This document shows positions 1,469-28,337 of a stretch of DNA of 41,101 nt, piece after piece. The DNA is from a virus. Its lineage: Duplodnaviria > Caudoviricetes. How positions within the stretch are numbered: position 1 is the stretch's first letter; every line of letters begins with the position of its first letter. The stretch covers positions 1 through 41,101 of the IMG/VR virus record IMGVR_UViG_3300010362_000009. One strand, written 5' to 3'. The position numbers were made by a program, and so were the translations under genes. The notes below the pieces were generated by a model. The model was not told the DNA's origin, did no database searches, and was given only the letters and a program-made list of their open reading frames with translations.

Positions 1469-3492
1469 TGCCCTACAAGAACAAGCAAGAGGCGGTCACC
1501 GCGCTTCGACCTGGGTGGGTGATCACCGGCGAACAGCCGAACATGGTCAAGATTCCCAACCCCAAGGCGGGGTTGGCAGGCCAGCCGCCGGAGATAACCG
1601 AGCAGCAGGGCTCGATTCTCACCATCTACGACCCCAAAGACCCGCAGGCGACGCCGGACACGATCATCATCAAGGAGGTCGGCAACGCCCCCTGGAAGGG
1701 CGGGGTCGGTTACGACGTCGTCCAGGGACCGCAGAAGGCGGTTCCGACGCCACCCAAGACGCCGAGCGCGTCGGCGAACCTGGACAAGCTGGACGACAAC
1801 GGCGACCCGTTACCCGCGGGGTCGACGGCGAAGCCTGCCTTCGTGCGCGACCCGGCGACGGGCACGGTTTTCCAGACCAAGGACGACGCGGTTTCCGACC
1901 CGTCGACGTGGGTGCCGTTCAAGAACCCGAACGACACCACGCAAGTCCTGGGCTACTACGACCCCAAAGCGCAGAAGATCGTCGCCAGCGTGCCGCAGGC
2001 CGCGGCTGGTACGCGCCGAACGGGTACGTACACCGACCTGATCGACCCGAACGACCCGAACGGTAAGCGGGTCATCGGCAAGATCGATGAAGGCTCGAAG
2101 GAAATCTTTGCTGTCTCGCGCGACCCAACGACGCAGAAGCAGATCGTTTCCACGCCCGAGAAGATTTTCGTCTTTGACGACCAGGGCAAGGTCGTCAACA
2201 CGGTCAACGTCGACAAGAACTCGCCGCTTCAGGCGGTCGTCATCGACGGCACGCGCTACACCTTCGACCCGAACGCCAAAGACCCCGCCAAGGCGTTCAC
2301 CAAGGTCGGCGACGAAGGTCTGCCGAAGACGATCAAGCAGGGCGACGACACGCTCGTGCTGGTCGACAACCCGGACGGGACGCAGAGCTACCACTACCCG
2401 CCAGGGGCCACGCCGCGGCCCACGCTGAACACCAACACCACGGCCAAGTTCCTGGTCTACACCGACCCGGTAACGGGCAAGGAAGTCGCGCGCACCGACA
2501 ACCCGAACTACCAGGCGCCGCAGGTCACCCCGCCAACGACCAACGCCACGTCGAAGATGATCCCGGCGCCCGATCCGAGCTCGCCGACGGGCTGGAAGTG
2601 GGTCAAGAACGAGGCGCGCGTCACCGCGTCGCAGGCGCTGCAAGACCTGGCGAGCCAGCTATCGGGGCGAGTGGTCGACCAGGACATTTCGGTCGAAGAG
2701 GCGCAGGCGATCATCAAGAGCGCCAACGACGCGATGGCGACGGCCTCGAGCGCCGCGGCGACGACGGTCTCGGCGATCAATCAGGGCGCGACCGCGGGCG
2801 CCAACATCCTGAACCAGCGCGTCCAGGCGGCGCAGAACTTCGTCAACCAGGGGCTCGGCCTGCTGGGGCAAACAAAGCATGGTCTGCTGGTCGCGCCACC
2901 GAGCGACTTCGCGGCCAACCTGGTCTCGGGCGCCGCGGGTTTCGCGACCGAGCTCGGGGGCGGTCCAGAGGTCTTTCAGGCCGCGGCGAACCTGGTTCGC
3001 AGGGCAGACCCGACGGGAGCGCAGGGGCAGGATGCTGCGGCGGCGTACGCGACGCTGACGCAGATGTTCCAGAAGTACCGCCAGACGCACAACGGCCAGC
3101 CCTCGCCGCAGGAGGTCGACGCGCTCAAGGGCGGCAACGGCATGGGCACCGGCGGTCAGCAGACCGTGCCAGGTCCGGTCCAGACGCAAGCCGTCCCGAA
3201 CCCGTTCGCGCAGAGCGGCATCGCCGAAGGCTCGAACCGGACCTTTGCCGCGCCGCTGAATGCGGTGCCTGGTCAGAACTACGGCGCGGCGACGGCGTAC
3301 AGCGGCGGCATCGCCCCCTGGAACGCGGCGCCAGGTCCGTCGTTCACCACGCCGCAGCCCGCGGCGGTGCCCGCACCGCAGCAGGTGGTCGGCACGCCGC
3401 AGCCGACATTCCAGACGCCGCAAATGGCGATCACGCCGATTCCGACCGTCCAGCCGCAGAACAGGAACATCACGATCACGGTGCCCACATGA
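1468..3492 (+). CDS. Putative internal virion (ejection) protein, 674 aa
   Basis: TGATG coupling to the giant gene; recurrent hairpin-like YDP/DPxTG motifs, an Ala/Gln-rich helical middle and a Pro/Gln-rich tail; position next to the giant protein. Confidence 0.6.
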   Translation: MPYKNKQEAVTALRPGWVITGEQPNMVKIPNPKAGLAGQPPEITEQQGSILTIYDPKDPQATPDTIIIKEVGNAPWKGGVGYDVVQGPQKAVPTPPKTPSASANLDKLDDNGDPLPAGSTAKPAFVRDPATGTVFQTKDDAVSDPSTWVPFKNPNDTTQVLGYYDPKAQKIVASVPQAAAGTRRTGTYTDLIDPNDPNGKRVIGKIDEGSKEIFAVSRDPTTQKQIVSTPEKIFVFDDQGKVVNTVNVDKNSPLQAVVIDGTRYTFDPNAKDPAKAFTKVGDEGLPKTIKQGDDTLVLVDNPDGTQSYHYPPGATPRPTLNTNTTAKFLVYTDPVTGKEVARTDNPNYQAPQVTPPTTNATSKMIPAPDPSSPTGWKWVKNEARVTASQALQDLASQLSGRVVDQDISVEEAQAIIKSANDAMATASSAAATTVSAINQGATAGANILNQRVQAAQNFVNQGLGLLGQTKHGLLVAPPSDFAANLVSGAAGFATELGGGPEVFQAAANLVRRADPTGAQGQDAAAAYATLTQMFQKYRQTHNGQPSPQEVDALKGGNGMGTGGQQTVPGPVQTQAVPNPFAQSGIAEGSNRTFAAPLNAVPGQNYGAATAYSGGIAPWNAAPGPSFTTPQPAAVPAPQQVVGTPQPTFQTPQMAITPIPTVQPQNRNITITVPT

Positions 3493-4640
3493 CCAACATC
3501 GTCAACGGCCACGATCTTGACACTCAATCAGGCCGCGCCGACTTCCGCGCTTCGGGCGGATGGGTAGAGGGCAACTCGAGTGGCGGTGGCTACTCGTATC
3601 AAACGCCGAGCGGTCAGACCGGCCAGGGCGGCGGAACGCAGACGCCGACGCAGGGCGCGACGTTCAACACGCCGAGCTCGCAGCAAGTCGGGCCGACCGC
3701 GACCGTCTCGGGCGGCACGCCGACGCAGTACACCAGCGCCGACCCGTACATCAAAGCCATTCAGCAAGCGGTCCAGGCGCTGAACTCGAGCGACCTGAAG
3801 GCGTTCAACGAACAGGTCCGCGAGTGGGACAAGGTCTTCCAGTTCAACACCGATCAGTTCAACGAGGGTATCCGTCAGTTCAACAACACCTTCGGCCTGA
3901 ACCAGGCCAACGTGACCGGCGTGTACAACGGTGCGCCGACGCTGGAAGCCGCCACAAGGGCGGCAAACTTCCTGGGCACGTACCAGGGGCAGCAGACCCT
4001 CCAGGCGCAGAACCAGTACTTCAACCAGGCACTTGCCGCGGCGGGGTTGACGGGGCGGTGGGGTGACACGGTGACGCAGCAGGCGCAAGCGCAGGCCGCG
4101 CAACTCTACGGCTTCGTGCCGGTGGCGTATGACGCGAACGGCGTGCCGGTCGACGCGCAGGGGCGCAGCCTCACTACCCTGGCGGCGCAGCAGCAGGCGT
4201 ACGCGCAGCAGATGGGCGCGATCCAGGCCGCGTCGCAGTTACAGGCCAACCCGTTCAGGCAGGCTCAGGTCATCGGCCAAGCGAGCCGCTTGCTGGCCGG
4301 TCAGCCGACGGCGGCGTTTTCAGCACCAAATACTGTTGGTGGCGTGGGCACGGTCGGCGGCAATACGCAGGGCGGCGTGGGCTACTTGCAGCAGCTTGTG
4401 GACGATATCAAGAACCCGGGCGCGAATCAGACGACCGCGGACCAGTTCATCGCCAGCACGCCGACGCCGAACAAGCTGGACTCGACGTCGTTCCTACGTG
4501 CCGCGCCGTCGACGCAGAACATCGTGCTCCAGGCGATGCAGGAAAAGTATGGGATTGATCCAAATGACGCGTTGACGCAGATTCGCAACACGCTGCCGCA
4601 GTTCACCGCGCCGACCACGTTCGGTGGTGTCAGGAGGTAA
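3489..4640 (+). CDS. Putative internal virion/DNA-pilot-like protein, 383 aa (MTNIVNGHD...)
   Basis: ATGA overlap at 3489-3492; Gln/Asn/Gly/Thr-rich with QFN repeats; the ORF-track start at 2598 is a shadow extension. Confidence 0.6.
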   Translation: MTNIVNGHDLDTQSGRADFRASGGWVEGNSSGGGYSYQTPSGQTGQGGGTQTPTQGATFNTPSSQQVGPTATVSGGTPTQYTSADPYIKAIQQAVQALNSSDLKAFNEQVREWDKVFQFNTDQFNEGIRQFNNTFGLNQANVTGVYNGAPTLEAATRAANFLGTYQGQQTLQAQNQYFNQALAAAGLTGRWGDTVTQQAQAQAAQLYGFVPVAYDANGVPVDAQGRSLTTLAAQQQAYAQQMGAIQAASQLQANPFRQAQVIGQASRLLAGQPTAAFSAPNTVGGVGTVGGNTQGGVGYLQQLVDDIKNPGANQTTADQFIASTPTPNKLDSTSFLRAAPSTQNIVLQAMQEKYGIDPNDALTQIRNTLPQFTAPTTFGGVRR

Positions 4641-11555: not shown

Positions 11556-13513
11556 GCTACATTGGCGGGCGGCGCAGCCCGTACCCGTACCACCTGGTCA
11601 TCGAAGACAAAACTGCCACGCCACCGTGGAGGCAGGGTTTCCTGCTCGGCGCGGCGAAACCTGGTCAGTCGCAGCTTGTCTCGAGCAAGGTCCAGGACAT
11701 TAGCAACATCCAGCCGACTGACTACTCGTACTCGGGCTGGTCGCCGCTGACCGAGCGCAACGCCGAGTACGAAGAGTTGACCTTCGGCATGGGCGTCAGC
11801 TTGCAGCAGAACGACCAGGCCAAGCAGGACCGCAGCTACCTGTACGCCGAAGGCGTCGACGCCAGTGTCTGGCCGTGGTGCAAGGGTCCAGAGCTCACGC
11901 TGTTCACCCCGCCGTCGCACGATACTGCCGTAGGCGCTACGCGCTTCTTCGAGCTCCTGGGCTCGCTGTACTGCGCCAACGGGCGGTACGTGCTGCGTCG
12001 CGATAGCGATGCTGCTTGGACGCTGGTCAAGGACTTCGGCTCGGGCGTAGCCGTTCTCGACGTGGCGGTCTTCCAGTCGAACTTCGACAAGGTCCAGCGC
12101 GCGTTCTTCGCGCTCTCGAGCGGCGTGGCGCAGTACACGAGCAACGGCACCACGTACACGCCGATGGCGACCTTTACCGCAGTCGCGTTCGCCGTCATCG
12201 GTCGCGAGTTCTGGTGGGCCGACGACCTGAATCGGCTGCGGAAGTGCGACACGAACGCCGATCCGACCGTCGAAGGCAACTACACCAACGCGATCTTCCG
12301 CGCCGGCGACGCGTCGTCGGTCATCACGTCGTTGATGGTGACCGCGGCAGGCACGCTGCTGATTGGCAAGACCGACGGGTTGTACACGCTTGACGCGAGC
12401 GGCCAGGATCACTCGCTGTTTCCGTTCCTGAAGCTCGCCGACGACGCCAACAACGGCAAGTTTTGGGGCCAGTTCGAGAACTCGATCTACACCAGCTACG
12501 GCTACTCGCTGGCGCGCATCGACCCCGACCTGGCGTGGACCGACGTCGGTCCCGAAAAGCTGGTCGGCAACAGCGGTCCCGTCAACGGTCGCGTGACTGC
12601 GTTCTGCGGCGTCGGGACGGCGTTTGCCTACGCCGCCATCCTGAATCGCGACACTCAGACGGGTTATCTGTGCAAGTTCGGGGCGTGGGGCCTGGGGCTG
12701 AAGACGCCCGAGTCGGAAGCCATCCACATCGACGCCTGGCACGGCTCTGTGATTGCGCCGCTGCCTGGCAGGGGCATACAGACGTTGTTCGTGAGCGCGA
12801 TCGGTGCACCAGCCAATCACACGCGTACGTATCTGGGCTGTTCGGATGGCACGATCGGATGGGTCATCAACGCCTGCTCGCCGAACCCGGTCAATTGCTC
12901 GAGCTATCGCTTCCACATGGGCGACGCCTTCATTCAGTTGCCGACGTTTCACGGTGGGTTTCACGCCAGCATCAAGTCACTACGGAATGTCGCCGTGACG
13001 GGGCCGCTGATCAACACGTCGAACTACGTTCAGGTCGAGTACAAGGACGATCCGAAAGACACGAGTTGGACGATGCTGCCGAATCGGTTCGACGCTTCGA
13101 CGTACGAGCTCCAGCCGGTCACGCCGATGGGTTCGGGCGTGCTGTTCCTGTTCCGCGTCCACCTGGTCAACACCACCAACACGACGTCGCCGCAGGTGTC
13201 TGCTGTGGCTGTAGGCCATGCCCTTCGCCCGCCGCGACTCATGTCGTTCGAGGCTGACATTCTGTGTGCTGACGGCCTGGTGCGACGCGACGGCGTGCCG
13301 CTGCGGATCGGGCGACGTCAGATTCAGCAGTACATCGAGAAAGCGGTCGACAATCCCGCGGCGCTGACGGTCACCCTGCCGGACGAGACCGTGCAGGATT
13401 TGTCGTTCATCGACCTGAAGATAGCCCAGGCGTTCGATGAGGTCGGACGGGAGTGGCGCGGCTCACTCCATATCGTCGCGATGCAGCACTTTACGACGGA
13501 GATTGAGGTATGA
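11552..13513 (+). CDS. Putative tail nozzle/stabilisation protein (beta-propeller-rich), 653 aa
   Basis: GTGA overlap; repeated short beta-strand blocks (LYCANGRYV, LLIGKTDGLY, TYLGCSDG); size and position as in podoviral tails. Confidence 0.6.
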   Translation: MSYIGGRRSPYPYHLVIEDKTATPPWRQGFLLGAAKPGQSQLVSSKVQDISNIQPTDYSYSGWSPLTERNAEYEELTFGMGVSLQQNDQAKQDRSYLYAEGVDASVWPWCKGPELTLFTPPSHDTAVGATRFFELLGSLYCANGRYVLRRDSDAAWTLVKDFGSGVAVLDVAVFQSNFDKVQRAFFALSSGVAQYTSNGTTYTPMATFTAVAFAVIGREFWWADDLNRLRKCDTNADPTVEGNYTNAIFRAGDASSVITSLMVTAAGTLLIGKTDGLYTLDASGQDHSLFPFLKLADDANNGKFWGQFENSIYTSYGYSLARIDPDLAWTDVGPEKLVGNSGPVNGRVTAFCGVGTAFAYAAILNRDTQTGYLCKFGAWGLGLKTPESEAIHIDAWHGSVIAPLPGRGIQTLFVSAIGAPANHTRTYLGCSDGTIGWVINACSPNPVNCSSYRFHMGDAFIQLPTFHGGFHASIKSLRNVAVTGPLINTSNYVQVEYKDDPKDTSWTMLPNRFDASTYELQPVTPMGSGVLFLFRVHLVNTTNTTSPQVSAVAVGHALRPPRLMSFEADILCADGLVRRDGVPLRIGRRQIQQYIEKAVDNPAALTVTLPDETVQDLSFIDLKIAQAFDEVGREWRGSLHIVAMQHFTTEIEV

Positions 13514-14937
13514 GCCGACAGAACTCCACCAACTACACCGGCGCCATTCAGTTTCCCTACGCGACCGCGGGTACCGACCTGTTCCTGAAGGAAGACGTCC
13601 AGGTGCTGGCGCAGGCGGTCGATCAGCACGATCACTCGAGCGGCAAGGGGCTGCCAATCGCGAGCGGCGCGTTGACGTGGCCGCTTGTTGGGCCGAGCGG
13701 GGCGTTCATCGGCAACAGCGTTAGCAAGCAAATCTCGATCACTGAGTCGCTACTGATCAACGGCCCCCCCACCGGCACCATTCTGTACATGGGCAACTCC
13801 ACTAAGGAGTACATCCGCACTCCGCTCAACAACGGCGCCAACCTGAGTGTCGAATCGAGCGACGGCGCGCTCACCCTGTCGGGGCTGGCGAGTTCCAACA
13901 TGGCCGTCAACGGCTATTTCGACGGTGCTAGCTGGAACCGTTACTCCACCGGGTCGGGGGCATTGCTCGCGCAGCTTCAGCCCGACGGTTTCCACATCAT
14001 GACCGCGCCGACCGGGGCAGGCTCGATTGTCTGGACGAACCAGTTCAACATCGCCACGAACGGTGATGTGTACACCAACGGAAATCTGAACATAAGCGTC
14101 GCCGGCAAGCAGTTGCAGTTCATCGACGGCAACACCCACATCGTGGTCGATAGCTCGCGCATGATGGCGTTCGATACGTTCAACGCACCGTGGTACTTTC
14201 GCGACACTGCGAACGGCTCGGTGATCCGCATGGTCCTCCAGCCGACGAACGAAGGGCGGCTCGGCATCGGCGCGATGACTCAGCCGGCGGCGCAGCTTCA
14301 CGTCAAGGGCTCGGCGATTGCCGGCGCGAACACTTGGGCGAACCGCGTCAACACATCGACAACGTCGCTGAACTTGTCAGCGGGGTTTGCGTTCATTGAC
14401 GACACCTACGGCGGCGGCGGCAACGGTGGGGCGCTCTACTTCGGGTGCCAGGGGCTGTTTCTGAGCGGCATCTGCGCCAGCTTCACGAACGGTGCGAGCT
14501 ACGGCACCGGGCGCATGAGCTTCGGGATTCGCTCCAACGCCGCGGACACCACATTCTTCGAGATTCTGAGCCTCGATCCGAACAAGAACATCTACGGCGG
14601 CGTCGGGACGCAGATGTACGCGGTCGCGTTCAACCCCACGTCGGCGCGCCGCTTCAAGACCGACTTCGCCCCGCTCGGCGACCCGCTCGGCCTGGTGCTG
14701 GATGACCGCGTCCACGCGGTGAGTTACACCGACCTGTCACTCGGCACGCGCAAGGTCGGCTTCGTCGCCGAAGACTGGCTGGAGGTGCTGCCGGAGGTGG
14801 TGGACCGCGACCAGGTCGGCGAGGTGCTGGCGCTGGATTACGACCACCTGTCGGCGGTCACCTTCGAGGCGCTCAAACGCTTCGCGATCGACACTGATAC
14901 GCGCCTGAAGGCGCTGGAAATGAGGATGGCCGCATGA
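13510..14937 (+). CDS. Tail fibre/spike with C-terminal peptidase S74 intramolecular chaperone, 475 aa
   Basis: TSARRFK...GFVAED...PEVV...DYDHL...EALK plus a terminal coiled coil; RLGIG...PAAQLHV fibre motif. Confidence 0.85.
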   Translation: MSRQNSTNYTGAIQFPYATAGTDLFLKEDVQVLAQAVDQHDHSSGKGLPIASGALTWPLVGPSGAFIGNSVSKQISITESLLINGPPTGTILYMGNSTKEYIRTPLNNGANLSVESSDGALTLSGLASSNMAVNGYFDGASWNRYSTGSGALLAQLQPDGFHIMTAPTGAGSIVWTNQFNIATNGDVYTNGNLNISVAGKQLQFIDGNTHIVVDSSRMMAFDTFNAPWYFRDTANGSVIRMVLQPTNEGRLGIGAMTQPAAQLHVKGSAIAGANTWANRVNTSTTSLNLSAGFAFIDDTYGGGGNGGALYFGCQGLFLSGICASFTNGASYGTGRMSFGIRSNAADTTFFEILSLDPNKNIYGGVGTQMYAVAFNPTSARRFKTDFAPLGDPLGLVLDDRVHAVSYTDLSLGTRKVGFVAEDWLEVLPEVVDRDQVGEVLALDYDHLSAVTFEALKRFAIDTDTRLKALEMRMAA

Positions 14938-15224: not shown

Positions 15225-15586
15225 AGCGCATCCTGCTGCGCTCGTTGCCCGATCCGCGGCTGGACCGCGGCGATCCGATGTACGACGCCGCGCTGGTGGA
15301 CTACCGCACCCTGGTCGAGGCGGCGCTGCGGAACCCGCTCGATCGTCAGACGGGCGCGACGATTAGCGAGATGCGCCAGAGCATCCGCGTGCTCGATGCG
15401 CTGGACCGTTCAGAGAACGGAATCCTGGAGCTCGAGGATGCCGACTGGCAGCACTTGAAGCTCAAGGTCGAGCACATGCCGTGGGCGACGGTCGATCGAC
15501 GCATCCTCGAGTTCTGTGACGACATTCTCGAGGCGACCGACGCGCCGAAGGCGGAGCTCGCTGCGGCGAGTAACAGTCATGCCTGA
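15221..15586 (+). CDS. Hypothetical protein, 121 aa (MKRILLRSLPDPR...), possible fibre assembly chaperone
   Basis: GTGA overlap at 15221; LELEDADWQHLK helix. Confidence 0.65.
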   Translation: MKRILLRSLPDPRLDRGDPMYDAALVDYRTLVEAALRNPLDRQTGATISEMRQSIRVLDALDRSENGILELEDADWQHLKLKVEHMPWATVDRRILEFCDDILEATDAPKAELAAASNSHA

Positions 15587-15761
15587 CTGGAACGTCGGAC
15601 CTGGAGTGGCGCAGGCCATCGCCGACGACGGTGGCGAGATTCGCTCCGACGAACGCTATGTAATCCTGGACGAAGGCCACAAAGTGTCGATGACGATGGC
15701 GACGACGGGCGTCTATTACTACTACCAGGAGGATAACCGGGTCTTCCGGACCCCTTTCTGA
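15579..15761 (+). CDS. 60-aa N-terminal lysin module (zero-frame product; possible cell-wall-binding domain)
   Basis: ATG 15579 overlapping the upstream gene; ends ACC CCT TTC TGA; Tyr-rich. Confidence 0.7.
   Translation: MPDWNVGPGVAQAIADDGGEIRSDERYVILDEGHKVSMTMATTGVYYYYQEDNRVFRTPF
15752..15761 (+). promoter_or_regulatory. Candidate -1 ribosomal frameshift site C_CCT_TTC followed by TGA
   Basis: X_XXY_YYZ heptamer in the correct phase; the -1 frame is open from 15737 to 16249. Confidence 0.75.
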
Positions 15762-16249
15762 CGGCGCCTGAGCCTCCTGACGACCAGGTCGTATGGGATG
15801 CCTGGGCGGATATGCCCGGTCAACTCTATTCCTGGACCTGTTCAGCCTGCTCACTGGAATGGGTCAAGCGTTCCGTAGGACTGGCGTCGAGCGGCGATAT
15901 CTACGCCGACCGTGAGACGACCGTGTACGAGATTGGCTACCCCGACAACGTCAACGCGACGTATGGGTTGATGAACGCCGACGGCTCGGCGCTGATGGAC
16001 GTCCTGGACCGCTACGGTCAAGCCTCGCAGCAGGCGTGGCTTGGCTTCGATGATGCGTACAGGGTGGCGAGCATGACGACGGGCATGATCAGCGGCGCGG
16101 CCTGGTACCACTGGACTGCGTTGCGCGGCGTGCAGGGTGACACGATCTGGATAGCGAATTCGGCGCCTGGATATAAGTCGGTCTGGAACAATCTCGGGCG
16201 TGCCGATTGGGACCGTCTCGGGGGCTTCAGTTGCGTGTGGCTGGTGTAG
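15758..16249 (+). CDS. C39-like (papain-fold) cysteine peptidase, probable endolysin catalytic domain, -1 frame
   Basis: GQLYSWTCSACS (oxyanion Gln and catalytic Cys), YHWTALRG (His), IANSAPG; adjacent to membrane-protein genes. Confidence 0.75.
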   Translation: MTAPEPPDDQVVWDAWADMPGQLYSWTCSACSLEWVKRSVGLASSGDIYADRETTVYEIGYPDNVNATYGLMNADGSALMDVLDRYGQASQQAWLGFDDAYRVASMTTGMISGAAWYHWTALRGVQGDTIWIANSAPGYKSVWNNLGRADWDRLGGFSCVWLV

Positions 16250-16260
16250 GAGGTCGTCGC

Positions 16261-16413
16261 GTGACCGTGGGTCTGGCGCCATTTTCATTGGGGTTTATCA
16301 TCGCCATCGTCGTCCTTATCCTGGCGGTCATCGGCATCGTTGGGGTCTTACCCATGACGCCTGCGACGCTCTTTGGGCTGGTCGCAGCACTCGCCATCGC
16401 TCGACTCTGCTGA
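16261..16413 (+). CDS. Holin-like protein, 50 aa, two predicted TM helices
   Basis: AGGAGG SD and GTG; MTVGLAPFSLGFIIAIVVLILAVIGIVGVLPMTPATLFGLVAALAIARLC. Confidence 0.65.
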   Translation: MTVGLAPFSLGFIIAIVVLILAVIGIVGVLPMTPATLFGLVAALAIARLC

Positions 16414-16424
16414 TCAATCACGCC

Positions 16425-16505
16425 ATGTTCTGGCTCCTGGTCGTGCTGATCCTGGCCGCGATCGTGCTGGTGTGGTGGCTAAGCGGCGCTCGAACGCTGC
16501 TGTGA
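16425..16505 (+). CDS. 26-aa single-TM peptide (MFWLLVVLILAAIVLVWWLSGARTLL)
   Basis: Strongly hydrophobic small ORF in the lysis cluster; no clear SD. Confidence 0.45.
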   Translation: MFWLLVVLILAAIVLVWWLSGARTLL

Positions 16506-16512
16506 TGCGGAC

Positions 16513-16728
16513 ATGCTGCCGGTCGATCCAGACGAAGTACTCGATCCGAACCCGGCCAGAACGTCGAACTTCAGGCTAGAGCTCACCATCTCGGTCGGTT
16601 ACTCGAGGGAGCGTGCCGGACACATGGTGACTGGCAAGTGGGAGCCGACGATCACCAGCCTGTTCCTGCTGATCGGCGGCATCGCACTCGTGTTGCTCGT
16701 GGTCTACGAAGTCCTGTCGCGACTCTAG
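16513..16728 (+). CDS. Small membrane protein with a C-terminal TM helix (start may be ATG 16624)
   Basis: ITSLFLLIGGIALVLLVVY hydrophobic stretch. Confidence 0.5.
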   Translation: MLPVDPDEVLDPNPARTSNFRLELTISVGYSRERAGHMVTGKWEPTITSLFLLIGGIALVLLVVYEVLSRL

Positions 16729-23392: not shown

Positions 23393-23613
23393 AGACCTGG
23401 GTGGTGCGCCTGCCCAATAACGACCGCGACTGCTGGATCGGCAACGCCGAGACCGCCGTCGAGGCGGTCCAGTTCGCCATTGCCCGCGGGCGCATCAGCC
23501 TGGTCGATCGGTACGTCGTCTTCGACCATGACCTGAACCAGTTCGAGGTCGACGTACGCTCGAGGAATGGCAGTACTTCTGGCAGCGGTGATGCTGGTGT
23601 CGCAGGCGATTGA
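23389..23613 (+). CDS. Hypothetical protein, 74 aa (MKTWVVRLP...)
   Basis: GTGA overlap at 23389; high-GC3 frame. Confidence 0.6.
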   Translation: MKTWVVRLPNNDRDCWIGNAETAVEAVQFAIARGRISLVDRYVVFDHDLNQFEVDVRSRNGSTSGSGDAGVAGD

Positions 23614-23959
23614 CGTGACGCCCGCGGCTGAGCCCGAGACCGTGATCGAGACCGTCGAGGTTGAAGAGCCGGTCGTGGTCAAGCTCACCCCACGCGAGTA
23701 TTTGTATGCAGCCTACCCCTCGCTCGCGCGGCGGTTGGACTGCATGATTCGACTCGAGTCGACCTGGTACGCCGCGGCGTCAGGCGCTGGAGGTCGGTAC
23801 ATCGGGCTGGCGCAGTTTGACCGCCCAACGTGGGCGGAGACGCCGCAGGGCGCCGCGGGCGCTTCGAGAACGGACCCGTACGCCAGTATCGACGCGATGG
23901 CGTGGGGAGTGAGGAACCTGGGCTATGGACGTTGGCCGGTTACATCGCGCCGCTGCTAG
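23567..23959 (+). CDS. Exported lysozyme-fold/Rpf-like transglycosylase, 130 aa
   Basis: Hydrophobic N-terminus; CMIRLES (catalytic Glu), YIGLAQF...TW, G..RWP...C. Confidence 0.7.
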   Translation: MAVLLAAVMLVSQAIDVTPAAEPETVIETVEVEEPVVVKLTPREYLYAAYPSLARRLDCMIRLESTWYAAASGAGGRYIGLAQFDRPTWAETPQGAAGASRTDPYASIDAMAWGVRNLGYGRWPVTSRRC

Positions 23960-24344: not shown

Positions 24345-24420
24345 TTACAAACAGAAACGCCGTCCGTGGCTTTGGGTGAGTTGGGACGGCGTTCTGTGAA
24401 AGGACTTTGGGTGTGCTCTC
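24345..24420 (-). ncRNA. Candidate antisense RNA (~75 nt) in the replicase leader
   Basis: Minus-strand TTGCCG-N16-TACTAT (24454-24427) upstream; hairpin 24356-24365/24384-24393 followed by TCTGTTTGT. Confidence 0.4.
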
Positions 24421-24455
24421 AAGTGCATAGTACGACTTCCCGCGGCGACGGCAAT

Positions 24456-27400
24456 GTGCAGTCCAGCACAAGTCGAGCCGCTCACCAGTTTGCTAACGAT
24501 GGCTTCTACGTCCTGCCGCTGTGGTGGATCGAGGACGGCGAGTGCGCCTGCCGAGCGCATGGATACAACGGGGCGTGCAAGCCCGGTAAGCATCCGATCG
24601 GCAACCTGGTCCCGAACGCGCACGCGGACGCGACCATTGATCCCGCGGTCATAACGACCTGGTTCACGCTGCACCCCAAGGCGAACGTCGGTATCGCGCT
24701 CGGCCCGTCGGGGCTGGTCGACGTCGCGCCGGACTCGATCGAGTGGTTCGCCGAGTTCGTCGGTCGCGGCCTGCCGCTGACGATGCACTTCGCCAGTGGT
24801 GGCGGCAGCGGCCACGAGCACTGGCTGTATCGACGCGGCGACATGCCTGCCGTACGGATAGCGAGGCGCGGTAAGTTCGACGTGCTGAGCGACGGCTACT
24901 GCGTTGCGCCGCCGTCGACCACCGAGCGCGAGTATCGCTGGATCGACCAGGTGGTGCCCGTCGACGTGCCGCAGTGGGTGTGCCAGTTCGTCCTGGACTA
25001 CATCATCGAACGCGACCAGGCATCCGACGAGGCGGTCGTGCCCGCTGGCACCGACGTGCCGCCGGTCGATTTGTTCGGCGATCAGTGGGCGATCTGGAAC
25101 GGCCAGGTGGCAGGCGACCGCAGCAATATGCTGGTCGACATTGCCAGGATGCTGAGCATGGCCGGCTGCACCGACGTCGAGGTCATCGCCAGCGTCCTGG
25201 CGGAGCGTGACGTGACGCTCGGACTGAACAAGTACGCGACCAGGCGCGATGCCTCGAGGCGCTACCGCGAAATCGCGCTGCGCTACGGCACGCCGCCGCT
25301 GACGGCGAAGCTGTCTGGCGCAGGTGGTTCCGCGGTACCGAACATAGGGGTTGGAACCGGGGAACCACCTGGCGCGCAAGAGGCTACCCCCTTCGGGGGT
25401 AGAGGTTCCGGCGGCTTGATCAGGTGGCGGAACCACTCAGAAACGCTGGCGATGCGCCCGCCCGCGGTGGACTGGCTGATCGAGGGCATCTTCGGGCGCA
25501 CGTTGATCACTGAAGTGGTCGCCAAGGTCAAGGTCGGTAAGACCACCTTCGTCCTGGGCGGGCTGCGCGCTGGTATCGCCGGTGACGAGCTCTACTGCGG
25601 TCGTATCGTGAGCGGTCCGTTCCGCGTGGCGTACGTCACCGAAGAGGGCGAGAGCACCTTTCTGGAGGCGATGCGGCGCTACGGGCTGAACGACCTGGTC
25701 GAGCAGGACGCCTTCTACACCGTCTTCGACTACGAGACGCTGCCAGGACCGTTCAGCAAACAGATAGACGAGCTCATCGAACATGCGACCGCGGATCAGG
25801 TTGACGTCGTCATCCTGGACACGCTGTCGATCATCGCCGGGCTGGACGAGGAAGACCACGCCGGTAAAGCTGCGACAGAAATGCACCACGTTCGACGCCT
25901 CGCCGCGGCTGGTTTCGCGGTCGGCATTCTTCGGCATAGCCGTAAGTCGGGAGGCGAGGTCGGCGACGCGGGTCGCGGCTCGAGCGCCATCAGCGGTTAC
26001 TGCGACATTCTGCTTCAGCTTGAGCCGTACAAGGGCGACGAGGACACCAGCAACTTGCGCGTGCTGAAGAGTCGCTCGCGGCTGAGCATGACCGAGCCGC
26101 TGGTTCTGGAGTTCGACAAGGAAACCGAGCGGTACACCGCGCTCGGCGTGGTGCAGACCAAAGAAGAGCGACTTGCCGAGAAGATTCAGGCGACGCTGGT
26201 CACGCACAAGGCGTTCGACTTCGACCGCGCCATGTCGACCAACCAGGTAACGATGGCGACGAAGGGCAACCGTGCCGGTATCCAGCGCGAGCTCAAGGAG
26301 ATGGGGCTGCGCGGTGACCTCCATCACGCGCAGCGCGGTCAAGCAGAGGTCTACTGGACCGACGAGCCGCTGACCGCGCACATCACTCACCAGGTGGTAC
26401 CAGCCGATTTGGAACCAGTGGAACCACCTGAACAGCAACCCCCTACGGGGGTTGAGCCCGAACCCGAAAAAGAACCAGGTGGTACCGACCTACCTACTCC
26501 CCTTAAGGGGAGGGGTCGGGGAACCACCCACAAGGAACCGAGCCCCGAAGCGGTCGCGAAACGGGCTGAAGAAAAGGCGGCGCGCGAGCTCGCTCGGCTC
26601 GAGGCGGCTGACGCCACGGCGCCGACGCTCGAGTACGTCGCGATCACCGAGACGTACAAGCTGCCGCAGTACCTCGCCACGCTGAGCACCGCGGCGTGCG
26701 CGTTGGACACGGAGACAACCGGCCTGTCGGCGCATCACCAGCGGATGCGGACGATCAACCTGTCCGACGGCGTGACCCACCTGGTCATCGACTCGTGGAA
26801 GATGACCGACCTGTCGCCGCTCCAGCGTTACCTCGACAAGGTCGGCAGCGTCAGGATGCACACGTACCTGTTCGACCTGGCGTTCCTGGCGACGCGCGGC
26901 ATTGCGGTCGACCCGAGCAAGATCGTGGACGTCAAGACCATGTCGATGGTGCTCGAGTCGAAGGAAGACTGGACCGACTATCGGCTCCAGGGCATCGCGA
27001 AGCGGCATCTCGCTGAGCACGTCGACAAGGCCGAGCAGAAGCGTGGGTGGGATGCGCCGGACCTTCGGCACGCGAAGCTGGCCTACGCCGCGGAAGACGC
27101 GCGCGTCACGTTCGCTGCCGCGGATGCGCTCGAGGCGAAGCTGCTCGCTGACGCAGACGTCGACTCGCTGAGCTACTGCCTGTCGCTCGAGCAGGACGTC
27201 CAGGCCGCGACCTGGTGGCTCGCATCCGCGGGCGTGCCGTGCGATCGAACCATGCTCAAGGACGCTATCGCGCAACAGGAGACGCTGATGGACGATCGTC
27301 TCCAGGAGCTCAATGCCATCGCCGCGGTCGGAACGGAAACGAACTGGCGTTCACCGGCGCAGGTGCTGCCGATCCTCCAGGAGCGCGGCCTCGACGTCTA

Positions 27401-28337
27401 CTCGACGGGAGTCGACGCGCTGATGGAGGCGCAGTCGGACGATCCGATTGTCGACGCGCTGCTGAAGTACCGCTCGGCGGGGACGTGTCTGGGACTGCTC
27501 CAGAAGACGCTGGCGTGCGTCGCCGACGACGGGCGCATCTATGCGTCGTTCAATCCGATCGGCGCACAGACGGGCCGTACAAGCTGCTCTGAGCCGAACC
27601 TCCAGCAGCTACCGCACGAGACGCTCGCGCGTAGCGCCATACGGCCAGGACCAGGTCGCGTGTTCGTCCGCGCCGACTACTCGCAACTGCAAATCGTCAT
27701 TGCGGCGTGGCTGTCGGACGATCCGACGATGAAGCGCATCCTGAACACGCCCGGCGGCGACGTGCATACCGCGACCGCGCAAGCGGTGGGCTGTACGCGC
27801 CAGGAGGCCAAGGCGATCAACTTCGGGTTCCTGTTCGGCGCCGGTGCTGAGACGTTCCGTCGAGAGCAGCGCAAGAACGGCATCATCCTGAGCGACGAGC
27901 AAGCTCTCGCCTACCGTCGCAAGTTCATGTCGACCTACCCGGGCATCCGTAAGTGGCACCGCGGCCTGGGGGAGTGGGGCACCGAAGCGGAGGTCATCGA
28001 CTTCACTGGCTCCGGTAGGAGGCGTCTGGCGATTTTCTCGAACAACGTCAAGGCCAACACGCCGGTGCAGATGGCTGAGGCGCATGGCTTCAAGCTGGCG
28101 CTGAAGCGCCTGTACGAGACGCGCGAGGCCGTGCCTTCGGCAAGGCTGGTGATGATGGTTCACGACGAGCTCATCGCCGAATGCGACGTCGGCGAGGCCG
28201 ACCTGGTCGGTCAGTGGCTGGTCTCGAACATGGTCGCGGCGATGCAGCCGCTGGTCGAGGGCGTCGTCGTCAGGGTCGACCCCGTAACCGTGCCGAGCTA
28301 CTCGGACGAGGACAAACGCAATGCCGATCTACGTTGA
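24456..28337 (+). CDS. Multifunctional replicase: AEP Prim-Pol primase + AAA_25/RepA-like helicase + 3'-5' exonuclease + family A DNA polymerase (~1293 aa from GTG 24456)
   Basis: GFYVLPL, GKHP, ANVGIA, GYCVAPPS; AKVKVGKTT, VVILDT, HSRK, GRGSSA; ALDTETTGL, YAAED; TGRTSCSEPNLQQLP, ADYSQ, AKAINFG, MVHDEL. Confidence 0.9.
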   Translation: MQSSTSRAAHQFANDGFYVLPLWWIEDGECACRAHGYNGACKPGKHPIGNLVPNAHADATIDPAVITTWFTLHPKANVGIALGPSGLVDVAPDSIEWFAEFVGRGLPLTMHFASGGGSGHEHWLYRRGDMPAVRIARRGKFDVLSDGYCVAPPSTTEREYRWIDQVVPVDVPQWVCQFVLDYIIERDQASDEAVVPAGTDVPPVDLFGDQWAIWNGQVAGDRSNMLVDIARMLSMAGCTDVEVIASVLAERDVTLGLNKYATRRDASRRYREIALRYGTPPLTAKLSGAGGSAVPNIGVGTGEPPGAQEATPFGGRGSGGLIRWRNHSETLAMRPPAVDWLIEGIFGRTLITEVVAKVKVGKTTFVLGGLRAGIAGDELYCGRIVSGPFRVAYVTEEGESTFLEAMRRYGLNDLVEQDAFYTVFDYETLPGPFSKQIDELIEHATADQVDVVILDTLSIIAGLDEEDHAGKAATEMHHVRRLAAAGFAVGILRHSRKSGGEVGDAGRGSSAISGYCDILLQLEPYKGDEDTSNLRVLKSRSRLSMTEPLVLEFDKETERYTALGVVQTKEERLAEKIQATLVTHKAFDFDRAMSTNQVTMATKGNRAGIQRELKEMGLRGDLHHAQRGQAEVYWTDEPLTAHITHQVVPADLEPVEPPEQQPPTGVEPEPEKEPGGTDLPTPLKGRGRGTTHKEPSPEAVAKRAEEKAARELARLEAADATAPTLEYVAITETYKLPQYLATLSTAACALDTETTGLSAHHQRMRTINLSDGVTHLVIDSWKMTDLSPLQRYLDKVGSVRMHTYLFDLAFLATRGIAVDPSKIVDVKTMSMVLESKEDWTDYRLQGIAKRHLAEHVDKAEQKRGWDAPDLRHAKLAYAAEDARVTFAAADALEAKLLADADVDSLSYCLSLEQDVQAATWWLASAGVPCDRTMLKDAIAQQETLMDDRLQELNAIAAVGTETNWRSPAQVLPILQERGLDVYSTGVDALMEAQSDDPIVDALLKYRSAGTCLGLLQKTLACVADDGRIYASFNPIGAQTGRTSCSEPNLQQLPHETLARSAIRPGPGRVFVRADYSQLQIVIAAWLSDDPTMKRILNTPGGDVHTATAQAVGCTRQEAKAINFGFLFGAGAETFRREQRKNGIILSDEQALAYRRKFMSTYPGIRKWHRGLGEWGTEAEVIDFTGSGRRRLAIFSNNVKANTPVQMAEAHGFKLALKRLYETREAVPSARLVMMVHDELIAECDVGEADLVGQWLVSNMVAAMQPLVEGVVVRVDPVTVPSYSDEDKRNADLR
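25321..25436. repeat. Origin-like repeat cluster A in the primase-helicase linker
   Basis: CAGGTGGTTCC(25321)/GGAACCACCTG(25361) inverted pair, further GGAACC/GGTTCC copies, hairpin CTACCCCC-TTC-GGGGGTAG (25384-25402). Confidence 0.7.
26391..26540. repeat. Origin-like repeat cluster B in the helicase-polymerase linker
   Basis: CAGGTGGTACC twice, GGAACCACCTG (26420), CAACCCCC-TAC-GGGGGTTG (26436-26454), palindrome CTCCCCTTAAGGGGAG (26497-26512). Confidence 0.75.

Follow-up and report, generated by a model that had tools for sequence, protein, structure and literature searches.

The phage genome analysed here probably carries a lysis gene from which programmed ribosomal frameshifting would yield two proteins with a common start, a free binding module and a full endolysin, and we put the probability of this reading at roughly 0.8. 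The window, by which we mean the whole stretch of 41,101 bases, is a complete virus record with direct terminal repeats and 65% G+C and was detected in soil metagenome runs; its genes include those for a terminase, a major head protein, a primase-polymerase and a tail-fibre-like protein, the last of them ending at 14937. The split lysis locus follows the tail genes and precedes three small hydrophobic ORFs (Table 1). What can be read directly from the sequence is the split gene with its heptamer, the conservation of that heptamer, the occurrence of +1, -1 and in-frame variants among relatives and the lysis-type neighbourhood. Beyond the single gene, we give even odds to a wider picture, in which a widespread family of soil-phage lysis genes builds an oligomeric endolysin, with one catalytic domain and several modules, by frameshifting, the direction having flipped repeatedly at one Pro-Phe codon pair (as CCC_UUU_Y for +1 and as C_CCU_UUY for -1) and an unrelated module having reached both products via C_CCA_AAA or by duplication; these would be four genetic solutions to one stoichiometry problem.

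Table 1. Features of the split lysis locus in the window, and related loci that carry the second module
Feature	Position	Strand	Remarks
ORF1, 60-aa accessory module	15579..15761	+	ends ACC CCT TTC TGA
-1 slippery heptamer C_CCT_TTC (Pro-Phe codons)	15752..15758	+	X_XXY_YYZ phase correct
Zero-frame TGA stop	15759..15761	+	immediately 3' of heptamer
-1 frame: Pro/acidic linker, W-D-x-W motif, papain/C39-fold cysteine peptidase	15758..16249	+	W-D-x-W motif at 15794-15805
Peptidase residues	Gln 15821, Cys 15839, His 16109, Asn 16157	+	
Possible 3' hairpin	15765..15808	+	6 nt past heptamer, -22.3 kcal/mol
Internal ATG, used by gene callers	15812..15814	+	three codons before conserved Gln
Small hydrophobic ORF	16261..16413	+	own AGGAGG; holin-like by position and hydropathy (predicted)
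Two small hydrophobic ORFs (16425-16505, 16513-16728)	16425..16728	+	read by eye
Second-module loci with split junction	junction about 3968-3980 in L063		L049, L051, L052, L054, L063-L066, L249-L272
Second-module fusions with duplicate			L006, L040, L069, L072, L077, L079, L080, L082, L083, L085, L086, L247, L248, L269

The split gene and codon choice at its junction

The 60-residue ORF, the correctly phased C_CCT_TTC, the open -1 frame and predicted products of 60 and 223 residues (60+163) are all present in the window as the sequence-only reading had described them. The -1 frame is open from 15737, directly behind a TAA (15734-15736), to the TAG at 16249 and reads ...PFLTAPEPPDD... into the peptidase; the predicted junction peptide of the 223-residue fusion is TPFLTAPEPPDD. 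Heptamers of this type that lie zero or one codon before a stop triplet number three on the two strands of the window, and on the plus strand this is the only one.

That the split stems from an assembly error or a recent pseudogene is a practically negligible explanation. A Logan contig from run X1, possibly the source sample, covers 15300-16500 at depth 9.6 with neither a difference nor a gap, which bears out the absence of an indel on which the earlier reading depended. Contigs of related strains from runs X2, X3 and X4, representing two further samples, cover 15580-15990; they differ by 37-47 substitutions and, among the matches listed, otherwise only by a compensating indel pair at 15943/15946, and the -1 offset is kept. 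It is true that this check was made on assembled contigs and not on raw reads and that in-frame relatives exist (8 of 133 loci); against error or decay stand the 125 of 133 loci that are split at the same two codons, the offset retained in the contigs of two further samples and catalytic residues that are invariant in a 94-row alignment.

Family scans with peptidase and module gave 248 loci, or 249 records with the window slice, of which 89 were duplicates and 24 had no module match, leaving 136 distinct loci. The peptidase lies in the +1 frame in 95 of these and in the -1 frame in 30 (the window's record included); 8 more are in-frame fusions, and the last 3 showed no peptidase, two of them ending with their contig and the third carrying an amidase. 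Not one of the 133 loci with both parts has them in the same frame separated by a stop. The -1 offset described from the sequence alone holds for the window; that most relatives would require +1 at the same Pro-Phe codons had been missed. The same applies to the in-frame homologues, which had been named as speaking against a shift: they exist in 8 of 133 loci, the other 125 being split.

The module ends in Pro-Phe in 44 of 44 aligned proteins. The fold may constrain these two residues, so it is the synonymous codon choice that carries information. All 95 +1 loci use TTT, which makes up 18% of Phe codons in the background; the next base is always C or T, and CCC precedes the TTT in 88 of them. 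The 30 -1 loci have CCT (19) or GCT (11) before TTY, with backgrounds of 17% and 9%, respectively; the motif expected at the junction of homologues, CCCTTTY, is indeed kept in 19, and the variant GCT_TTY in the remaining 11 breaks the tandem heptamer and retains only T_TTY, which is found in 30 of 30. In each of the 125 split loci a stop lies 0-3 codons past the Phe codon, and no stop interrupts the new frame between the site and the peptidase (0 stops in 30/30 -1 loci). After thinning to less than 85% identity (82 of 121 rows kept) the offset-specific codon pattern is found in 62 of 62 +1 loci and 17 of 17 -1 loci, the -1 pattern occurring in one of the former and CCC in none of the latter. 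Each phase lets tRNA-Phe re-pair in the direction that its locus needs, which favours ribosomes over polymerase or chance as the agent. Slippage of RNA polymerase on the C/T run, which would add or drop a base in the transcript for normal reading by ribosomes, would explain why one short motif of a C run and a T run fits both directions, but we regard it as very unlikely: the runs measure only 3-5 bases and known polymerase slippage tracts are longer, the T run is locked to the codon phase (TTT in frame in 95/95, T_TTY in 30/30), and a stop within 0-3 codons matters to ribosomes, not to a polymerase.

Single loci show further peculiarities. L119 (4179-4670) has a very divergent peptidase, on a long branch, behind a normal +1 site. 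Twelve -1 loci form a group (L048, L050, L055, L057, L058, L068, L071, L141, L145, L150, L155 and L157) with GCT_TTY in all except L050, a stop that always comes next and, in most, a predicted hairpin 0-40 nt after the stop; in L050 a hairpin with a different stem sequence lies at the equivalent place.

The direction of the shift has likely switched several times, by a number that is uncertain. In a quick 121-row protein tree, 12 changes are needed to account for the -1 label, strong branches forcing at least 9 of them, and DNA trees demand 10 changes for the module (at least 6) and 13 for the peptidase (at least 11); all of these are quick, unrooted trees, and a mixed module and peptidase alignment (A3) was poor and left out. 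The peptidase DNA tree rejects a single origin of the -1 phase (AU p 1.4e-5), which the module tree, built on 171 columns, does not (p 0.25); the switch count may therefore be inflated by recombination. In both DNA trees the window's sister L002 neighbours the +1 locus L001 inside strongly supported, otherwise +1 groups, and the closest relatives of the window beyond its own pair are +1. Furthermore, the DNA 3' of the window's stop is nearly identical to that of +1 loci such as L187, with 53 versus 52 bases before the conserved Met.

The peptidase, its start and its lysis setting

The model of the -1 product (pLDDT 94.8) has a C39/papain fold, with 6mpz as a match (Z 15.6, rmsd 2.6, 135 residues aligned; Foldseek E 1.3e-5), and the viral lytic enzyme PeiR reaches Z 14.2 against it. 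Its best viral match is a Gordonia phage endolysin (E 3e-5). Q23, C29, H119 and N135 are invariant in 94 alignment rows, and we take their catalytic roles to be those given by the papain order. These fold matches and invariant residues support the label of a C39-like peptidase given earlier; no Pfam, PHROG or PDB-sequence family was found for either peptidase or module.

Whether the peptidase is made separately from its module turns on the internal ATG at 15812, which the earlier reading had described as lacking a good Shine-Dalgarno (SD) sequence. SD pairing is indeed weak there (-3.2 kcal/mol) but equally so at the start of the 60-residue ORF (-3.1), so that it does not discriminate in the window and the start had to be judged from the family. 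Of 125 split loci, 79 retain an ATG in frame at nine codons ahead of the Cys; pairing below -5 kcal/mol is seen at 3 of these 79 internal ATGs against 88 of 132 module starts. Across the 133 loci the residue corresponding to 15812 is a Met 80 times, a Gln 52 times and a Thr once, so a Met start is no family trait. In 33 of 125 split loci no ATG, GTG or TTG occurs between site and Cys, and in 14 none is present anywhere in the open frame ahead of the Cys. Use of ATG 15812 as the main start is therefore unlikely.

Two separate genes, with the peptidase starting at ATG 15812 or by reinitiation at a stop-overlapping CUG and the module as a protein in its own right, would agree with the annotation of most homologues as proteins of about 145 residues, with the Met of the 80 loci, with the CTGA that overlaps the window's stop and with the like SD scores of both starts in the window. 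We nevertheless judge this arrangement improbable in view of the 52 loci with Gln, the 14 startless ones and the rarity of a strong SD at internal ATGs. It would also remove the W-D-x-W segment, a conserved W-D-P-W that precedes the Met and is modelled as part of the peptidase domain (pLDDT 94, residues 11-20), the structural alignment of which begins at residue 10-11; the conservation as such is uninformative about the frame, as the same stretch also looks conserved in the other two frames. In most -1 loci, moreover, the stop-overlapping -1 codon is CTA, TTA or GTA, and two genes would leave unexplained why the codon choice tracks the offset. Gene callers cut these enzymes at the internal Met, and clones based on annotation would consequently lose the module and part of the fold.

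The 223-residue product of the preferred frameshift reading is very likely an endolysin, judging by the gene's relatives and neighbours. A membrane-type ORF lies at most 300 nt downstream in 96 of 105 testable loci (28 were too short), against 0 of 91 for a control stretch that is lenient, lying mostly inside long tail genes. In the window the holin-like ORF at 16261 has no Pfam or PHROG family at cut-off, and the two small ORFs behind it are probably membrane proteins of the lysis cassette, the second (16513-16728) again without a Pfam or PHROG hit. The label had been proposed from the letters alone and has thus gained from the fold matches, the shared accessory module and these lysis-type neighbours. 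A real frameshift might instead serve a virion-associated hydrolase or a protease of surface proteins, lysis being left to another enzyme. The gene comes after tail-fibre genes, the best fold matches are leader-peptide proteases, and a second wall-enzyme candidate is present in the window, a protein of 130 residues whose N-terminus is hydrophobic and which has an SLT/lysozyme-like domain (23567-23959, plus strand; Atlas score 0.95). We think this improbable, given the membrane-protein genes next to the great majority of loci, the replacement of the peptidase by Amidase_2 at the same position in relatives, the C39-like domains of mycobacteriophage endolysins (PMC3314691) and the location of the SLT-like gene among replication genes.

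In that replication region a single plus-strand ORF of 1323 residues (24366-28337) combines primase, helicase and family A DNA polymerase domains according to PHROG hits. The tail-fibre-like protein upstream of the lysis locus (13510-14937, plus strand) has a weak C-terminal match to the Peptidase_S74 chaperone (E 7.5e-4, below cut-off).

The host is likely a member of the Chloroflexota, going by the labels of homologues and contigs: close homologues are assigned by NCBI to Chloroflexota MAGs, and of three loci from genome collections two lie on Chloroflexota contigs and one on a phage-sized contig within a Gemmatimonadales MAG. In L247 and L248 (about 3400-4430) a two-gene cassette lies on long contigs of Chloroflexota MAGs, surrounded by cellular-looking ORFs, with no obvious holin-like gene adjoining; it is perhaps a captured or remnant phage cassette.

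The module, its free copies and the course of the proposed shift

The module is modelled as a helix and four strands (pLDDT 92). The top rows of its structural search are 6swz (Z 6.1, rmsd 2.5, 55 aligned) and 6sx4 (Z 5.3), both of them below the noise level of 8 for the tool and weak matches to a Corynebacterium LGFP-repeat protein; 6SX4 is labelled LGFP (PMC9671378). The LGFP repeat (PF08310) matches none of 44 module members, a profile search of the PDB with the module returned no LGFP chain, Foldseek gave nothing at E <= 0.001 and the ESM Atlas no usable hit. More is learned from the company that the module keeps. In L159 (4001-4719) and L274 it is joined via C_CCT_TTC at -1 to Amidase_2 (E 6.4e-17 for L159). 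A profile search yielded 41 hits, and among the 18 longer proteins scanned for domains four carry, in frame and above cut-off, Amidase_2 (twice), Amidase_3 or NlpC/P60; one of the others has a weak GH25 hit, two have apparently spurious hits and 11 have no family, and two more module proteins show SLT and GH25 hits below cut-off. A portable domain that occurs at either end of several wall hydrolases is wall-binding-like, and the module likely binds the cell wall. The designation as a binding module, at first made from one gene, has been strengthened in this way by the amidases and NlpC/P60 proteins that bear it.

The module is also predicted to self-associate. Four copies are modelled head to tail with a complex score of 0.60 against 0.03 for the best control, the 0.60 mark having been calibrated on two copies only (20 of the 30 solved pairs attained it, as did 1 of the 23 single chains), unlike the modelled complex, which consists of module with module in four copies. 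The four-copy runs agree in 100% of contacts with pLDDT of at least 88 and place the invariant R22, S23 and F60 at the interface, to which D52 is also predicted to belong.

Natural in-frame fusions of module and peptidase measure 218-225 residues and so match the predicted 223-residue product; of 19 longer proteins found by the protein search, 12 are fusions of this kind, and a natural fusion found no match among 50,697 annotated phage records. The 8 in-frame loci have no second module copy in the available DNA (2 with less than 300 nt upstream), which implies that the free module is not always needed. The same peptidase is also preceded by an unrelated, helical N-terminal module, and there the junction consists of a C_CCA_AAA -1 site, one codon and a stop in 19 of 21 distinct cases; this parallel, too, had been missed by the sequence-only reading. 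Where this second module is fused in frame, a separate gene for the free module lies just upstream in 14 of 14 loci (17 in-frame loci were examined, 3 of them without the second module; in one locus the contig ends inside the free copy). Since these fusions carry a separate free-module gene, the comparison supports selection for a free module.

How the shift would proceed in the window can be outlined as follows. Ribosomes that halt at the TGA at 15759 would release the 60-residue, likely wall-binding module, and a predicted minority would slip back by one base on C_CCU_UUC and go on to make the module-peptidase fusion. This could happen through tandem re-pairing of tRNA-Pro and tRNA-Phe (CCU to CCC and UUC to UUU) or through slippage of the P-site tRNA-Phe while the A site waits at the stop. 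That the window gene is frameshifted we regard as highly probable, and from the codon pattern we infer that the slippage takes place at the ribosome. Internal SD sequences of -1 frameshift sites lie about 10-14 nt upstream and are not always required. In the -1 class no strong SD was found near the site (mean -3 kcal/mol at 10-12 nt); the only SD-like signal of the family lies 20-24 nt upstream within conserved acidic codons, and the window has an AGGAGG 19 nt upstream of the heptamer. The possible hairpin behind the window's heptamer is not significant (z -1.69, 14 of 200 shuffles as good) and is weaker in the sister L002, and a conserved 3' hairpin is seen neither in the -1 class (mean z -0.42; z < -2 in 2/30) nor in the +1 class. 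With no conserved stimulator and no strong SD, the efficiency may be low.

Free modules would then join the fusion's own module in a head-to-tail assembly, and the shift rate would set the number of binding units per catalytic domain and at the same time keep enzyme output low. We give slightly better than even odds to such a hetero-oligomer and to this role of the shift rate. As a variant within the main reading, the frameshift might only lower enzyme output for reasons of lysis timing or toxicity, with the free module as a by-product. The 8 fusion loci without a second copy and the lack of a conserved stimulator would agree with this, as would the indifference to direction, which for phage Ig-like extensions has been ascribed to chance (PMC5009743). 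We consider it possible but rather doubtful: the 14 second-module fusions keep their free-module gene at a cost in DNA and do not lower enzyme output, and the module is predicted to self-associate.

Relation to known systems

Endolysins made of two polypeptides are well documented. Lys170, LysIME-EF1, CTP1L/CD27L/CS74L and LysP7951 combine the full enzyme with free binding domains in ratios of 1:3, 2:2 or 1:5 (PMC9430671). As in these internal-start endolysins, one gene of the window would provide both enzyme and free binding domain, the assembly being only predicted here. The arrangement differs: their binding domain is C-terminal and arises from an in-frame internal start with a shared stop (PMC9430671), whereas the module of the window is N-terminal, the products share the start and differ in frame, and the enzyme needs the frameshift. 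The word frameshift is absent from the main text of that source. At the level of the enzyme, the window resembles the C39-like endolysin domain of mycobacteriophage N5 (PMC3314691) and PeiR, in which a papain-type cysteine peptidase likewise forms part of a viral lytic enzyme, but identity at the level of the fold is only 11-17%.

Frameshifting in phages is established for structural genes, namely -1 in lambda G/GT and in the coat proteins of T3, A2, A118 and A500, and +1 in the PSA coat protein and, at CCC_UGA, in Listeria tail proteins (PMC5009743). As in the family described here, a short and an extended product result, and relatives differ in direction, being +1, -1 or in frame (PMC5009743). 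In the structural genes tail and capsid proteins gain Ig-like domains (PMC5009743); in the window's family, on the other hand, the part added is a lysis enzyme's catalytic domain, and the +1 and -1 directions share the same two codons in alternative phases. UUU_Y is known in bacteria as a +1-prone site, and +1 shifts at it are described for Yersinia YopN-TyeA and influenza PA-X (UCC_UUU_CGU) (PMC5009743), and prfB shifts by +1 at CUU_UGA (PMC10885494). The 95 +1 relatives, with UUU followed by CNN or UGA, resemble these sites; the window differs from them in its -1 phase, and a prfB-like SD close to the site was not seen. In E. coli copA, -1 frameshifting yields a free small N-terminal binding domain besides the full enzyme (PMC5009743). 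There the shift leads to the short product and the zero frame to the enzyme, which is the reverse of the window gene.

The sequence-only reading knew of no description of frameshifting as a mechanism of lysin assembly, and in the literature, subscription papers and supplements lying outside the scope, no endolysin assembled in this manner was found. The nearest precedents come from Streptomyces phages of cluster BI, in which genes close to endolysins and holins have putative frameshifts (PMC9671017), and from Ms6, for which frameshifting has been suggested at the gp1-lysA overlap (PMC3111421). If our reading is true, lysis enzymes join the short list of phage genes with programmed frameshifting, and a new route is added to two-polypeptide endolysins, with the binding domain at the N-terminus. 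The module itself is a candidate for a new wall-binding module, probably for Chloroflexota walls. Since one codon pair occurs in both phases (+1 and -1), beside fusions in frame and gene duplicates, the family furthermore constitutes a comparison set that could show which shift rate and module-to-enzyme ratio lysis needs. Phage frameshifting and two-polypeptide endolysins are both known; their combination would be new.
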